The position numbers and the translations under genes are program-made. 64,000 nt of DNA. It comes from Rhodobium gokarnense. Lineage in GTDB: Bacteria; Pseudomonadota; Alphaproteobacteria; Rhizobiales; Rhodobiaceae. The notes under the pieces were generated by a model. The model was not told the DNA's origin. It saw only the letters and a program-made list of their open reading frames with translations, and did not search any database. The stretch covers positions 22,587 through 86,586 of the forward strand of contig NZ_JAOQNS010000009.1 in the NCBI RefSeq assembly GCF_025961475.1. The letters are read 5' to 3'. How positions within the stretch are numbered: position 1 is the first letter of the stretch; the number at the start of each line of letters is the position of its first letter. Positions 3,842-58,281 of the stretch are shown here, in pieces.

Positions 3842-6076
3842 GTGGCCAACCAGACCGCCTCCCTGCCGGGCCTTGAGCCGGCCCCCGAAGAGCCTGCCGC
3901 CACCGTTCCGGTGCTGGTGCCGGTCGCCGTGGAGACGGCCTACAGCTACCGGGTCCCGGCGGGAATGCACCTTGGGCCCGGAACCGTCGTCCAGATACCG
4001 CTCGGCAACCGGCAGGTCGTCGGCGCGGTCTGGGAGCCCGGCATCTGGGAGGGCGGCGGCGCAAAGCCGGTCGATCCGTCGAAGCTGCGCGAGATCCTCC
4101 ACGTCTTCGACGTCCCGTCCATCGATGAGCGCATGCGCCGCTTCATCGACTGGGTCGCCCGCTGGACCATGGCGCCGCCCGGCATGGTGCTGCGCATGGT
4201 CCTCCGGGTGCCGGAGGCGCTGGAGCCCGAACCGCCGCTGAAAGGCGTCCGCCTTGCCGGGGCGCCGCCCGAGCGGATGACCAAGGCCCGCGCCCGCGTG
4301 CTCGACCTCTTTGAGGAAAACCCCTCCTGGTCGAAGACGGGCCTTGCGACCGCCGCCGGCGTCAGCCCCGGCGTCGTCGACGGCCTCATCGGCGCTGGCA
4401 CGCTCCAGATCGTGCCGCTGCCGGCGGCCCCGCCGGCGCCCATGCCGGAGGCCGACTGGAACCGCCGCGACCTGAGCCCTGCCCAGGACAAGGCGGCAGA
4501 GGAGATCACGGCGACCGTCGCCGAGCGGCGTTTCTCCGTCACGCTGCTGGACGGCGTTACCGGCGCCGGCAAGACCGAGGTGTATTTCGAGGCCGTGGCC
4601 GAAGCCCTGCGCCGCGGCCGCCAGGCGCTGGTGCTGTTGCCGGAGATCGCGCTCACCTCGGAATTCCTGCAGCGCTTCGAGGAGCGTTTCGGCTGCCGCC
4701 CCGGCGAGTGGCATTCGGATGTGCCGCCGAAGCAGCGGGTGCGGCTCTGGCGCGGCGTCATCGACGGTTCGGTCCGGGTCGTCGTCGGCGCCCGCTCCGC
4801 GCTGTTCCTGCCCTTTCCCGAACTCGGCCTCATCGTCGTCGACGAGGAGCACGACCCGGCCTACAAGCAGGACGACCGCGTCGCCTACCACGCCCGCGAC
4901 ATGGCGGTGGTGCGCGGCCACATCGCCGGCTTTCCGGTAATCCTGTCGTCGGCAACGCCCTCCATCGAGACAAGGCACAACGCCGATACCGGCCGCTACC
5001 GCCGCATCGAGCTGCCGGACCGGGCCTCCGGCGCCGCGCTGCCGGACATCCACGCCATCGACATGCGCCGGGGTGGCCCGGCCCGCGGCCGCTGGCTGGC
5101 CCCGGCGCTGACCCGCGCCGTCGGCGAGGCGCTCGCCCGCGGCGACCAGGCGCTCCTCTTCCTCAATCGCCGCGGCTATGCGCCGCTGACCCTCTGCCGC
5201 TCCTGCGGCCACCGCTTCGAATGCCCGGATTGCAGCGCCTGGCTGGTGGAGCACCGGTTCCGCAGCGTGCTCACCTGCCACCATTGCGGCTTTTCCATGC
5301 CGACGCCGGAGGCGTGCCCGTCCTGCGGCGACGTCGATTCGCTGACCGCCTGCGGGCCGGGCGTCGAACGCATCGCCGAGGAAGCCGCGGCCGACTTTCC
5401 CGATGCCCGCATCATCGTCTTGTCCTCCGACATGCCCGGCGGCACCAGGCGGCTGCGGGCCGAACTGAAGGCGATCGCGGGCGGCGAGGGCGACATCATC
5501 ATCGGCACCCAGCTCGTCGCCAAGGGTCACAACTTCCCCAAGCTCAAGGTCGTCGGCGTCGTCGATGCCGATCTCGGCCTTTCCACCGCAGACCCGCGCG
5601 CGGCGGAGCGCACCTTCCAGCTCATCTCCCAGGTGACGGGCCGCGCCGGGCGCCGCGACGGCGCCGGCGTCGGCTACTTGCAGACCTACATGCCGGACCA
5701 TCCGGTGATGCGGGCGCTGGTCTCCGGTGACCGCGAGAGCTTCTATGCGACCGAGCTGGAGGCGCGCGAGCGGTCCGCCATGCCGCCCTTTGCACGGCTG
5801 GCGAGCCTCCTCGTCACCGGCCCGGACCGGCCCCTGACGGAAGGCTTCGCCCGCGAGCTTGCCCGCGCCGCGCCCCACCAGGACGGTGTCCACGTGCTGG
5901 GTCCGGCCGACCCGCCGCTTGCCGTCATCCGCGGCCGCCACCGCCAGCGCCTCCTCGTCCATGCCGACCGGTCGGCGGACATCCAGGCCTATCTGCACCG
6001 CTGGCTGGCGGCCGGCCCGGTGCCGAAGAAGGGCGTCCGCCTCGCCATCGACATCGAGCCGCTCAGCTTCATGTGA
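3842..6076 (+). CDS. priA: primosomal protein N' (replication restart helicase PriA)
   Basis: 744 aa; Walker A GVTGAGKTEVY, DEEH box (VVDEEHD), Cys4 zinc-binding cluster CRSCGHRFECPDCSAWL...CHHCG; GTG start. Confidence 0.9.
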   Translation: MANQTASLPGLEPAPEEPAATVPVLVPVAVETAYSYRVPAGMHLGPGTVVQIPLGNRQVVGAVWEPGIWEGGGAKPVDPSKLREILHVFDVPSIDERMRRFIDWVARWTMAPPGMVLRMVLRVPEALEPEPPLKGVRLAGAPPERMTKARARVLDLFEENPSWSKTGLATAAGVSPGVVDGLIGAGTLQIVPLPAAPPAPMPEADWNRRDLSPAQDKAAEEITATVAERRFSVTLLDGVTGAGKTEVYFEAVAEALRRGRQALVLLPEIALTSEFLQRFEERFGCRPGEWHSDVPPKQRVRLWRGVIDGSVRVVVGARSALFLPFPELGLIVVDEEHDPAYKQDDRVAYHARDMAVVRGHIAGFPVILSSATPSIETRHNADTGRYRRIELPDRASGAALPDIHAIDMRRGGPARGRWLAPALTRAVGEALARGDQALLFLNRRGYAPLTLCRSCGHRFECPDCSAWLVEHRFRSVLTCHHCGFSMPTPEACPSCGDVDSLTACGPGVERIAEEAAADFPDARIIVLSSDMPGGTRRLRAELKAIAGGEGDIIIGTQLVAKGHNFPKLKVVGVVDADLGLSTADPRAAERTFQLISQVTGRAGRRDGAGVGYLQTYMPDHPVMRALVSGDRESFYATELEARERSAMPPFARLASLLVTGPDRPLTEGFARELARAAPHQDGVHVLGPADPPLAVIRGRHRQRLLVHADRSADIQAYLHRWLAAGPVPKKGVRLAIDIEPLSFM

Positions 6077-6177
6077 GCCCCTATCCCGGCAAGGCACTCT
6101 TTATATGGGAGGGGGCATTCGCGCCGGACCTGTGCCATGATCGTCGGAACGAAAACACCGACAGGGAGGACCGGGGA

Positions 6178-6672
6178 ATGGTCAGGACAGGGACGATCGT
6201 TGCCGCAATGGCCGGTGCCATACTTCTTGCCGGTCCCGGCGCCGGCCGTGCCGCCGGCACGGACATGCTGTTTTCCATCGGCGTCATGACCGGCGGCGAC
6301 GCCACACAGTACTGCAACTTCATGACGCCGGCCGATGCGGCCGCCTTCAGCTTCGACGACGAGGCGACCTGGCGCTTCGTCTTCGTCTCCGACTACCCGC
6401 AGCCCGAAGGGGAGAGCGAGGAAAAGGGTCCGCGCGCCCGCGCCGTCGTCAACGGCAGGCTGCAGACCTTCGTCTTCCGCGGCGAAAAGACCGACGGGGC
6501 GGGCATGCTGGTGCGCCGCTATCGCGGCCTTGACGACAGCGACCTGCGTATGGTCGCGCGCCTCAAGCCGGGAACGAAGGGGATGGAAAGCCAGAACTTC
6601 GAAGGCCGGATTGTGATCCGCCGCGGCGACTGGCGCGCCGGCGTCGCGGTCAAGGGCGATTGCGGCGTGTGA
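6178..6672 (+). CDS. secreted hypothetical protein
   Basis: Start at MVRTGTIVAAMAGAILLAGPGAGRAAG (signal peptide); upstream part of ORF-track frame is not coding-like. Confidence 0.5.
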   Translation: MVRTGTIVAAMAGAILLAGPGAGRAAGTDMLFSIGVMTGGDATQYCNFMTPADAAAFSFDDEATWRFVFVSDYPQPEGESEEKGPRARAVVNGRLQTFVFRGEKTDGAGMLVRRYRGLDDSDLRMVARLKPGTKGMESQNFEGRIVIRRGDWRAGVAVKGDCGV

Positions 6673-55640: not shown

Positions 55641-55882
55641 TTGGCCGCGCTTGCGCGCCCGGCACACCATTTGCCATTGCGGAAAAATACTTAACCGTCA
55701 TATTCATGGCCAATTGGCAGTTTTAAGTTGCCCCGCTAGACTTCGGCCGCCGCGCGCAAGGATCCCATCGGCGCGCGGGACTGTTGAAAGTCGATAACTT
55801 GAATGGCGCGTGTCAGTCAGGGGCTGATGACGACATCGCCACACCGGAATCTCCAAGCTGTTCCCGGAGGGAAACAACGAAC

Positions 55883-56359
55883 ATGATCTGGAAAGCGAAA
55901 AAACCCCTGATCGCAGCGATGGCCATCGCCGCAGCCATGTCCCTGTCGAGCGAGGCGTTCGCCCAGCACGCCCGCTGTGACGCCCGTGCCCGCGCGGCGG
56001 CAAACGACCGCGTCCCGACCGGCGGCAACGTCATCGGCGGCGCCGCGGCCGGTGCTGTCGGCGGTGCCATCATCGGCGGTATCATCGGCGGCGGCCGAGG
56101 CGCGGCCCGCGGGGCCGCCATCGGCGGCGGTGCCGGTGCGGTCGGCGGTGCCGGGCGCTCCTCGATCCAGTGGGACCGCGTCTATCGCCGTGTCTACAAT
56201 CGCTGCATGAACCGCGCGGCGGATGTCGGCTACCGTGGCAGCGGCCCGAAGCCGTGGTCCCCGGCCTGGTACGACTACTGCTCGTCCAAGTACCGGACCT
56301 TCAATCCCGATACCGGCTACTATTTCTACGCCCCGGGCAGGCAGCGCTTCTGCCGCTGA
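55883..56359 (+). CDS. BA14K family protein (with glycine-zipper region)
   Basis: Signal peptide, Gly-zipper GGAAAGAVGGAIIGGIIGGG, C-terminal WYDYCSSKYRTFNPDTGYYFYAPGRQRFC characteristic of Brucella BA14K-type proteins. Confidence 0.85.
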   Translation: MIWKAKKPLIAAMAIAAAMSLSSEAFAQHARCDARARAAANDRVPTGGNVIGGAAAGAVGGAIIGGIIGGGRGAARGAAIGGGAGAVGGAGRSSIQWDRVYRRVYNRCMNRAADVGYRGSGPKPWSPAWYDYCSSKYRTFNPDTGYYFYAPGRQRFCR

Positions 56360-56403
56360 CCCAGGCAAGGGGGCCTGAGGGCCCCGCACGATGGGTGTTG
56401 GAG

Positions 56404-56433
56404 AACGCGGGCCTCGGCGCCCGCGTTTTTTTG
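56404..56433 (+). terminator. Rho-independent terminator after BA14K gene
   Basis: aacgcgggc-ctcggc-gcccgcgtt hairpin plus T7. Confidence 0.75.
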
Positions 56434-56560
56434 TTGGCGTTTTTGCAATGCCGGCAAGTGTTGCCCGCTATGGGGTTGCGCTTCTTGCGCTCCCGTTTTT
56501 CCTTCACTCAGCGTCGCGACAGGAGACGATCATGTGATCCATGAGATTGATTACGAAATC

Positions 56561-56974
56561 TCAGCTTATTATTCCACTTCCGCGCATACCGTCTTTCGCG
56601 GCGGAAATGAAATTTTCTTCATCATCTTTCTTGAAACCACGGAACGCCGCGATGAACAACGCAATCAAAATAGCCGTTATTGAAATAATAGGGGAGACGA
56701 CTAGTGCAATCGCATATGTTGCGGGAACAGTCAAAATTGTTCCCCAAATTACATTGTGTGACATGTGAAATAAGGCAAATGACATCATGAATATTATTGC
56801 GAGAGCAACAATAACGGCAAGCCAACGTAGATAATAGCGTTGGTCGGCTTCTCGATTTAAATTCTCTTTTGCCTTTGCGCTGGCCTCTAGGAGCCGAAAT
56901 TCAATGTTAGTCTGTCTTTGAGGTTGCGCTTTTTCTGCTTCAGGCTGCGCATCAATTGGCGGTACATCAATCAT
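56561..56974 (-). CDS. hypothetical membrane protein (2-3 predicted TM helices), candidate toxin partner of Panacea-domain protein
   Basis: 137 aa from MIDVPPIDAQ (ATG overlaps upstream stop as ATGA); hydrophilic N-terminal 50 aa then LRWLAVIVALAIIFMMSFALF and IWGTILTVPATYAIALVVSPIISITAILIALFIAAF hydrophobic segments; no family recognised. Confidence 0.55.
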   Translation of the reverse strand: MIDVPPIDAQPEAEKAQPQRQTNIEFRLLEASAKAKENLNREADQRYYLRWLAVIVALAIIFMMSFALFHMSHNVIWGTILTVPATYAIALVVSPIISITAILIALFIAAFRGFKKDDEENFISAAKDGMRGSGIIS

Positions 56975-57435
56975 TTCTGGGCATTCGCCTGCCGACGCTT
57001 GACTATGTAGTGGGATTGAATCAATTCGTTGGGGATCGGTGCATACCACCCGCCGAGACGGGTCGCAGTTTCCCACGGGCCACCTGGTTCATGGGTAATT
57101 TCGGATAGCCTAAAGGGCGTCATTGTGCCATAAATGTTATAGATCTGTTCTAAAAGGTTCTCCGTCGTTGGATCGTCAATAGTATCGGGATAATTAGAAT
57201 CTGGTTTAAAAGGTGTGACACCTTGTGGCCGAAAAGAATTGTAAACGTCCGGAATTACAGGGCCGTATTGCCATGCTTCAATGCGGTTTGGAAATAACGG
57301 GGCATTGTTGATTTCTAGGTTCCAGCCATGTGCGATATAGGTGAGCTTTAGCAGCGCCATTATGGATGGACATTGCCCATCACGCTTGGCGCGGCTCAAG
57401 AACCAATTGGCAATCTGCCGTGCATCGTATTGCAT
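56971..57435 (-). CDS. Panacea (DUF4065) domain protein, candidate PanA-type antitoxin
   Basis: IANWFLSRAKRDG...SIMALLKLTYIAHGWNLEINNAPLFPNRIEAWQYGPVIPDVYNSF matches the KLqKLlY...AW.yGPV.p.vY core of DUF4065/Panacea (SocA/GepA-like); ATG 57435 with GGGGTGA 6 nt upstream (alternative GTG 57444). Confidence 0.7.
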   Translation of the reverse strand: MQYDARQIANWFLSRAKRDGQCPSIMALLKLTYIAHGWNLEINNAPLFPNRIEAWQYGPVIPDVYNSFRPQGVTPFKPDSNYPDTIDDPTTENLLEQIYNIYGTMTPFRLSEITHEPGGPWETATRLGGWYAPIPNELIQSHYIVKRRQANAQK

Positions 57436-57459
57436 CTTATTCACCCCGCTAGCTCACTT

Positions 57460-57487
57460 AATATAATCAATTTCGTTGAGATTTCAA
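57460..57487 (-). promoter_or_regulatory. sigma70-like promoter of islet operon (TTGAAA-N16-TATATT) with upstream palindrome GATTCGAATC
   Basis: On minus strand: TTGAAA (57482-57487) - 16 nt - TATATT (57460-57465), about 25 nt upstream of ATG; perfect 10-bp palindrome at 57505-57514 just upstream of -35. Confidence 0.55.
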
Positions 57488-57774
57488 TGACTTGCTATCT
57501 AATTGATTCGAATCGTTTTTTTGCTGCGCCGCAAGTGATCCCGTCAGTTTTTCCGACCAGCGCTGCATTTGCGTTTTTTGAGCCGGGCAAATACCGCATG
57601 TGCCGTTTGCAGTGGTTCCGCTTTTCCTCAGAAGTGGACTATCGCTAGGTTGTAGTACGTAAGCGGCAGCGAAAAAGAATGAATTCAAAAGCCCTCCGGG
57701 TTGCCGAGGCAAGCCGGTCTCGATGCGGTGGGGCAGACGAAAGAGTCGTTCGCGCCCCGCACCGGCGAGGATGC

Positions 57775-58281
57775 TTACCCCGCCGCCAGGTGCTTGAATG
57801 CCGCGACGACCTGGACATAGACGTCGCGCTTGAACGGCACGATCAGGTCCGGCAGGCGCTCCAGGCGCTCCCAGCGCCAGGCGCTGAATTCCGGCTTGTG
57901 GTCGTCGCCCGGATTGTCGACGTCGATCTCCGATTCCGGGCCGGTGAAGCGCATGGCGAACCATTTCTGCTTCTGGCCCCGGTAGCGGCCCTTCCAGGCA
58001 ATGCCGATCATCTCGTCCGGCAGGTCATAGGTAAGCCAGTCCCCGGTCTCGCCGATGATCTCGGCCGAGCGCACGCTGGTCTCCTCGAAGAGCTCGCGCT
58101 TGGCTGCCTCGGCCGGGTCCTCGTTCTTGTCGATGCCGCCTTGCGGGAACTGCCACCAGTAGCCGGCCCCCTCCGCATCGTCCGGCTCGAAGCGGCGCTC
58201 GCCGGCCCACACCAGGCCGTCGTCGTTGAACAAGACGACGCCGACGCAGGGGCGGTAGGGAAGATCGTCCTTGGCGACCAT
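57775..58281 (-). CDS. rppH: RNA pyrophosphohydrolase (Nudix)
   Basis: Start [19 protein letters not shown]; Nudix box [23 protein letters not shown]; RppH-type C-terminal region. Confidence 0.88.

Follow-up and report, generated by a model that had tools for sequence, protein, structure and literature searches.

A candidate Panacea toxin-antitoxin pair with a predicted two-helix membrane partner on an acquired islet of Rhodobium gokarnense

Between the housekeeping genes of Rhodobium gokarnense lie two overlapping, AT-rich genes, here denoted panA and panT, and the question that this locus raises is what a Panacea (DUF4065) protein does with a small membrane protein as its partner. The genes are located in a stretch of 64,000 nucleotides (assembly GCF_025961475.1, contig NZ_JAOQNS010000009.1, positions 22,587 to 86,586; denoted the window, with position 1 as its first letter). 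The initial annotation of the locus had proposed an acquired candidate toxin-antitoxin (TA) module of the PanAT type. As a prediction this proposal is supported by a Panacea match in the upstream product, a partner with two transmembrane (TM) segments, pairing of the two genes in 11 of 12 contexts and a patchy distribution. Among the features that define PanAT pairs, a Panacea domain, a conserved adjacent two-gene arrangement (the FlaGs criterion) and a patchy, mobile distribution are found here. The pair is probably a horizontally acquired type II PanAT module, in which PanA would hold a membrane-depolarising 2-TM toxin, PanT, by means of a conserved cytoplasmic helix.

The upstream gene, panA, occupies 56971-57435 on the minus strand (start ATG at 57435, stop at 56971) and encodes a standalone Panacea protein of 154 amino acids, the putative antitoxin. 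Its product is 100% identical to the NCBI record WP_264602412.1, 'Panacea domain-containing protein', of Rhodobium gokarnense. The Panacea/DUF4065 core that had been claimed for this open reading frame (ORF) was borne out by a hidden Markov model match to Pfam PF13274 (SocA_Panacea) of 63.3 bits (E 5.1e-17; gathering score 25.7), spanning residues 28-121 of the protein and positions 1-112 of the 113 in the profile. PanA also matches phrog_1281 of PHROG (E 3.6e-38), as well as the NCBIfam model SocA_antitoxin (NF047745), at 92.9 bits and E 1.8e-26, below the equivalog cut-off of 190. Since the NCBIfam model aligns with residues 3-149, PanA is a single-domain protein, and no additional HTH, PAD1 or ZBD domain was found in it. 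Of the two upstream ends first given for the ORF, 57435 and 57444, the former stands; the version starting at GTG 57444 is not on the NCBI record. A structure model of PanA made from its single sequence (predicted local distance difference test score, pLDDT, 33) was discarded.

The downstream gene, panT (56561-56974, minus strand), encodes the putative membrane toxin, a protein of 137 amino acids that is 100% identical to Rhodobium gokarnense WP_264602411.1. Hydropathy analysis detected two hydrophobic segments, TM1 at residues ~49-72 and TM2 at ~85-112, joined by a 12-residue loop without charged residues. The first 48 residues carry 7 K/R and 9 D/E and the tail (residues 111-137) 5 K/R and 5 D/E. 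An AlphaFold2 model built with 23 homologues (pLDDT 76) placed helices at 18-77, 85-111 and 116-132. In this model the long helix 18-77 would run from the cytoplasm into the membrane, 85-111 would be the return helix and 116-132 a short C-terminal helix, so that PanT reads as a helical hairpin with the N- and C-terminus both predicted in the cytoplasm. The earlier description of a membrane protein with a hydrophilic N-terminal head therefore holds, whereas its count of two or three hydrophobic helices is narrowed to two by hydropathy and by the model. The predicted layout comprises a disordered stretch (1-17), a conserved cytoplasmic helix (~18-48), TM1, the uncharged loop, TM2, the motif AAFRGFK and the charged C-terminal helix.

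Which parts of PanT are conserved was read from 23 close homologues (E<=1e-20), which share 22 invariant residues, R41, E42, Q45 and R46 among them. As these residues are shared by so many homologues, panA and panT are real genes and not chance ORFs. The juxtamembrane helix at residues 23-48, with the motif NREADQRYxLRW, has a mean column identity of 0.80 and the motif AAFRGFK after TM2 one of 0.90, compared with 0.62 in TM1 and 0.39 in the loop. Conservation thus peaks outside the hydrophobic core and is not confined to generic hydrophobic segments. A longer version of panT, of 171 amino acids from GTG 57076, was rejected, as the homologues begin at the MxxVPPxD motif. At 50% identity, the family found by a HMMER profile search comprises 280 clusters with E<=1e-3, of which 148 reach E<=1e-10.

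The TGA stop of panA (56973-56971) overlaps the ATG start of panT (56974-56972) by 4 nt in the sequence ATGA, as had been noted at the outset. Just upstream of panA is a putative sigma-70-like promoter (57460-57487, minus strand), composed of a -35 box TTGAAA (57487-57482), a 16-nt spacer and a -10 box TATATT (57465-57460), which scored 10 of 12 in a consensus scan. The same boxes are found at equal distance from panA in four homologous loci (L001, L006, L007 and L011), a conserved position that agrees with the single promoter predicted earlier to serve both genes. A putative Shine-Dalgarno-like element, GGGGTGA (57441-57447, minus strand), has its run of G residues 8 nt ahead of the ATG of panA. 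A single strong hairpin was found downstream of panT; it lies at 56406-56432 and is the plus-strand intrinsic terminator of the convergent BA14K-like gene (a GC-rich CGCGGGC-CTCGGC-GCCCGCG followed by T7). This hairpin, missed by a pattern scan and seen when 56385-56560 was folded as RNA, may also end the panAT transcript, which would begin at ~57455. An Rfam scan around the islet that carries the two genes gave nothing above threshold.

How novel is such a pair? PanT matched no family at significance in Pfam, NCBIfam, PADLOC or PHROG, and a Pfam scan of 150 relatives gave no consistent family. It does not fall within the SLATT, S_2TM or holin-type effectors (SLATT_1 E 0.61; no PADLOC match), and Phage_holin_3_6 matched just 2 of the 150 family members, both below threshold. 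A Foldseek search of the PanT model against the PDB found no match at E<=0.001, and sequence and profile searches of the PDB gave TM matches at chance level only. In these databases the partner is indeed family-less, as had been stated; in the literature it has a place. Kurata et al. 2022 (PNAS 119:e2102212119; PMC8832971) defined the Panacea antitoxins (PanA) together with many unrelated toxins (PanT), and Dataset S1 of that study contains a row for Sphingomonadales bacterium EhC05 (GCF_001650955.1), with PanA WP_082896667.1 and the putative toxin WP_066743555.1, assigned to cluster pT26/T24 (order A before T, distance -17, 'notest'). In the same assembly (locus L004) we found a PanA gene (5550-6017) that overlaps a 2-TM gene (6001-6444) by 17 nt, and the 2-TM protein (P0018) is 45% identical to the window PanT (E 2.7e-25). 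By this comparison the window PanT is placed in the catalogued cluster pT26/T24, with assembly, gene order and overlap length as the basis of the link, the protein compared being GenBank OAO02591.1 and not RefSeq WP_066743555.1.

The dataset lists eight T24 pairs, all of them alphaproteobacterial: Ochrobactrum grignonense, Ensifer aridi, Rhizobium oryzae, R. favelukesii, Pseudaminobacter salicylatoxidans, Thalassobius mediterraneus, Ruegeria halocynthiae and the EhC05 strain (Kurata 2022). The pair had been described as probably uncharacterised, which is right insofar as it has no experimental record ('notest'), and too strong insofar as the cluster was catalogued in 2022 and PanA has already been named by NCBI. 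It is therefore less novel than first thought: its class and cluster are already predicted in the literature, and it is not a new class.

To what extent do the two genes belong together? Contexts with readable DNA came from Sulfitobacter sp. (L001-L003), Sphingomonadales bacterium EhC05 (L004/L010), two metagenome contigs (L005, L006), four Sphingomonadales genomes (L007-L009, L011) and three distant members of the family (L017-L019). In 11 of the 12 readable contexts (the window, L001, L004-L009, L011, L017 and L018) a Panacea gene lies directly upstream of the 2-TM gene on the same strand; in L018 its ORF is intact though it had not been called previously. The boundary between the two genes ranges from a 17-nt overlap to a gap of 85 nt (L006) and is usually an overlap of 4-17 nt. 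Across eight homologous modules PanA is 62-68% identical to that of the window and PanT 39-53%, and both proteins travel together across Rhodobiaceae, Rhodobacterales and Sphingomonadales. The exception is L019 (3709-4357). Its 2-TM gene encodes a distant PanT-like protein of 118 amino acids (P0293), which matches the family profile at E 8.7e-17, and 4 nt upstream of that gene ends a 95-aa ORF with neither a Panacea domain nor a Pfam match. L019 may represent a partner swap that joined a 2-TM toxin to a different antitoxin, and partner swapping of this kind is typical of TA toxins.

The surroundings of the modules vary. In L017 (2588-4456) tandem Panacea genes, of 286 and then 160 amino acids, precede the 2-TM gene, with an IS1595 transposase upstream and a methyltransferase-HNH gene downstream of the module. 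IS1595-family transposases lie within ~3 kb of panAT in L004, L006, L007, L017 and L018, and none is present in the window; this proximity in five independent contexts hints at how the cassette travels. ISL3, Prim-Pol and UmuDC are found near the module of L005, and a serine recombinase in L018. In Sulfitobacter an 807-aa gene that fuses SIR2_2 to a protein kinase lies ~800 bp from panAT (L001 7182-9605; also L002 and L003), with a GIY-YIG gene further on in L002, and these surroundings look like a defence-island setting.

A convergent gene of 136-161 amino acids overlaps the 3' end of panT on the opposite strand in L001 (6410-6820), L006 (6316-6774) and L007 (4408-4893), three otherwise different contexts. 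Its homologues share 29-35% identity and 22 invariant columns and have no Pfam family. As a third component of the module this gene (L001-L003, L006, L007) was ruled out, being absent from the window and from the remaining loci. Panacea genes are also found with other neighbours: a 4.1-kb Escherichia coli plasmid (NZ_CP148433.1, L020, 27-894) carries a PanA gene, and the gene after it encodes a soluble protein of 139 amino acids that is not related to the 2-TM family. A copy of this PanA gene, at least 99% identical, is present in 48 E. coli genomes and is nearly always chromosomal. The E. coli PanA loci examined have partners of other kinds: that of plasmid pZ1323CEC0013_1-7 is soluble, and the chromosomal PanA gene of UMNF18 has no adjacent TM gene.

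How did the pair come to lie in the window? It sits on an islet of ~1.4 kb (56363-57780) between the stop codons of the BA14K-like gene and rppH, with a low-GC core at ~56440-57650. All 400-bp windows with a GC content below 0.55 in the 64 kb fall at 56301-57800 and nowhere else, and the GC content of the islet is 0.42-0.48 compared with a window mean of 0.67. The AT-rich codon usage that had set the two genes apart was confirmed at third codon positions, where the GC content is 0.50 in panA and 0.38 in panT, against 0.80-0.91 in the pckA, BA14K-like, rppH, deacetylase and ctpA genes. The pair had also been described as missing from an otherwise conserved rppH-ctpA-envC-rlmH-rsfS neighbourhood. 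Two relatives whose RppH is 80-81% identical (L013 and L014) agree with this: both keep rsfS-rlmH-envC-ctpA-deacetylase-rppH followed by the BA14K-like gene, L014 also pckA, and both have a glycine-zipper gene of 111-112 amino acids, and no panAT, between rppH and the BA14K-like gene. The blastn homology of the window to these two loci ends at 56362 and 57781. The panAT pair is foreign, horizontally acquired DNA. Had it been a conserved core-genome feature, its reading as a TA module would have suffered; the patchy distribution, the variable and mobile-rich neighbourhoods and the syntenic relatives that lack the pair show it to be accessory.

In L013 (7526-7864; 7982-8458) and L014 (7511-7846; 7934-8395) two paralogous glycine-zipper genes stand beside rppH, one of 111-112 amino acids and one of 153-158 amino acids with a BA14K C-terminus. 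The window keeps the BA14K-type copy alone (55784-56359, plus strand), and the panAT islet sits where the short paralogue stands, of which no remnant is left in the window. No integrase or transposase was found in the islet. A 13-nt direct pair (56424/57514) and a 16-nt inverted pair (56538/57464) flank it, both at chance level by a rough estimate; the flanks of the window islet match no other locus, nothing is common to the downstream flanks of different loci, and short upstream stretches are common to a few loci only. A cassette bounded by terminal inverted repeats or att sites was rejected in view of these chance-level repeats and unmatched flanks.

What would the module do? Kurata 2022 (PMC8832971) fully validated 9 of 25 tested PanAT pairs in E. 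coli, and three of the validated PanTs span the membrane, depolarise E. coli and are each counteracted by the cognate PanA. Of two further T3 members in the same dataset (PMC8832971), the one from Vibrio cholerae is marked 'Toxic' and the one from Pararheinheimera 'stuck in cloning'. With three validated, one more recorded as toxic and one 'stuck in cloning', the small TM-type PanTs fared better. Ernits et al. 2023 (PMC10440598) demonstrated that a standalone Panacea protein directly neutralises a Bartonella choladocola membrane toxin through contacts with the N-terminal tail of the toxin and with the short helix in front of its TM region, that two substitutions in the Panacea core abolish rescue, and that a related membrane-depolarising TA system, Rosmer of phage Kita, whose toxin RmrT depolarises, defends against phage; a sensory role for Panacea was also proposed there.

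We propose the same mechanism as in B. choladocola because the layout is the same, a standalone Panacea protein and a toxin best conserved in the helix leading into TM1. One sigma-70-type promoter would drive panA and then panT, and the ATGA overlap would couple their translation, such that the antitoxin is made with or ahead of the toxin. PanT would insert into the inner membrane as a hairpin of two TM helices with both termini in the cytoplasm. Free PanT would most likely depolarise or permeabilise the membrane and halt growth, as do the validated membrane-spanning PanTs from E. coli, Bartonella and Helicobacter. PanA most likely binds the juxtamembrane helix of PanT (~23-48) and its N-terminal tail directly. 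Y57 and H115 of PanA may, at a guess, be the counterparts of Y56 and H120, the positions mutated in the B. choladocola PanA. Inactivation or loss of PanA, by proteolysis, by loss of the element or possibly upon a phage cue, would release PanT. We infer this mechanism from the architecture and the conserved pairing; that PanT is toxic and directly bound by PanA, what triggers its release and what role the module has in the cell are predictions of the same analysis.

Several findings weigh against this proposal. Of the 25 putative PanTs tested in E. coli, eight showed no toxicity and another five were toxic without being rescued (Kurata 2022, PMC8832971), and all eight T24 members of Dataset S1 are flagged 'notest'. 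PADLOC models matched neither PanA nor PanT. Relatives of PanT were not found by tblastn among PLSDB plasmids or INPHARED phages, nor among the IMG/VR contigs scanned with family patterns, and so the family has no plasmid-, phage- or IMG/VR-borne member in these searches. A T24 profile of 150 sequences aligned with the T12 toxin of Aggregatibacter phage S1249 gave an hhalign probability of 1.8%, that is, no detectable homology in a comparison with a single target and of limited sensitivity. As T24 has no detectable homology to this T12 member, the mechanism is argued from architecture and not from homology to a validated toxin.

A module that serves mainly in abortive infection is possible, if rather doubtful: PanA would sense a phage cue and free the membrane toxin, which kills or arrests the infected cell. 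This explanation competes with a role in addiction or stabilisation over biological function and not over molecular mechanism. It is favoured by the sensory proposal for Panacea and the phage defence by Rosmer (Ernits 2023, PMC10440598), by the matches of PanA to phage protein families, and by defence-like or mobile neighbours elsewhere, such as the SIR2_2-Pkinase and GIY-YIG genes of Sulfitobacter and the methylase-HNH gene of L017. The window pair itself, however, stands alone among housekeeping genes, outside any defence island, PADLOC gave no match, phage and viral-contig relatives were not found in INPHARED and IMG/VR, and in the studies consulted we found no membrane-toxin PanAT with demonstrated anti-phage activity.

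We consider it unlikely that the pair is not toxic at all, the membrane protein and its Panacea partner acting without growth arrest in superinfection exclusion or as a membrane-anchored regulatory switch. For the 2-TM protein we detected no homology to a validated toxin, and its conserved cytoplasmic helix and AAFRGFK motif could equally bind something else. Strict co-inheritance, antitoxin-first coupling, patchy mobile distribution and partner swapping are, on the other hand, a classic TA signature, and the small TM partners of PanA that were tested (T3, T12 and Helicobacter) proved toxic.

A bolder extension of the phage-responsive scheme, to which we likewise give little credence, would make the T24 protein no generic membrane-disrupting peptide but a distinct, widespread family (more than 280 clusters at 50% identity) of gated two-helix effectors, and the pair a system of abortive infection in marine and soil Alphaproteobacteria that had escaped notice, in which the helix and AAFRGFK control pore oligomerisation and PanA is a phage-responsive sensor; the non-Panacea partner in L019 suggests that such an effector could be plugged into other sensors. 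That PanA delivers its partner to ClpXP for degradation, in the type VI manner of Caulobacter SocA with SocB, is very improbable: the NCBIfam SocA_antitoxin model does align across nearly the whole of PanA (E 1.8e-26) and the host is an alphaproteobacterium, as is Caulobacter, but the score of 92.9 stands against an equivalog cut-off of 190, its partner, a membrane protein, does not resemble SocB, a membrane-inserted hairpin would make an unlikely ClpXP substrate, and complex formation by PanAT pairs is typical of direct type II neutralisation (Kurata 2022, PMC8832971).

If the proposed type II module is validated, T24 would become the fourth, sequence-unrelated membrane toxin family neutralised by Panacea and add to the evidence that one antitoxin domain controls many unrelated toxins. 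The conserved PanT motifs outside the membrane are direct starting points for working out how a soluble Panacea domain keeps a membrane protein in check. The value of the pair lies in its being a well-delimited candidate with clear conserved motifs, and the islet neatly exemplifies a minimal putative TA cassette of 1.4 kb set among housekeeping genes, without a recognisable mobility gene.

How does the pair compare with known systems? With the T24 pairs of Kurata 2022 it shares gene order, size, host class and a standalone PanA; it differs in that Rhodobium gokarnense is not in the list, in that the cluster is described there by table row only, and in that the family, at 280 clusters at 50% identity, goes far beyond the eight pairs of the dataset. 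Among the validated membrane-depolarising PanTs are T12/D11 (Bartonella apis, now B. choladocola) and T3 (E. coli STEC O31), and T3, T12 and T24 were kept apart in the clustering of Kurata 2022. The T12 pair of phage S1249 (PanA D11S_2261, toxin D11S_2262), whose genes overlap by 14 nt as in Dataset S1, has a PanA that shares 36% identity with that of the window (E 2e-24), and the neutralisation proposed here through the segment before the TM helices follows the D11:PanA model.

SocAB of Caulobacter crescentus, a type VI TA system, resembles the pair in that Panacea is the SocA domain and the host is alphaproteobacterial. SocA is a ClpXP adaptor for SocB, and SocB is a soluble inhibitor of the DnaN clamp; the window partner, in contrast, is a 2-TM membrane protein that does not resemble SocB and has no family match, and PanA itself lies outside the SocA equivalog (92.9 bits versus 190 for NF047745). 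HokB was the reference phenotype in Kurata 2022 (PMC8832971). Together with TisB, RmrT of Rosmer and the holin-like and SLATT/S_2TM proteins, it resembles PanT as a small helical membrane protein with a predicted collapse of the membrane potential. Hok and TisB are peptides of less than ~50 amino acids under antisense RNA control, whereas the toxin candidate of the window has 137 amino acids and a protein as its putative antitoxin.

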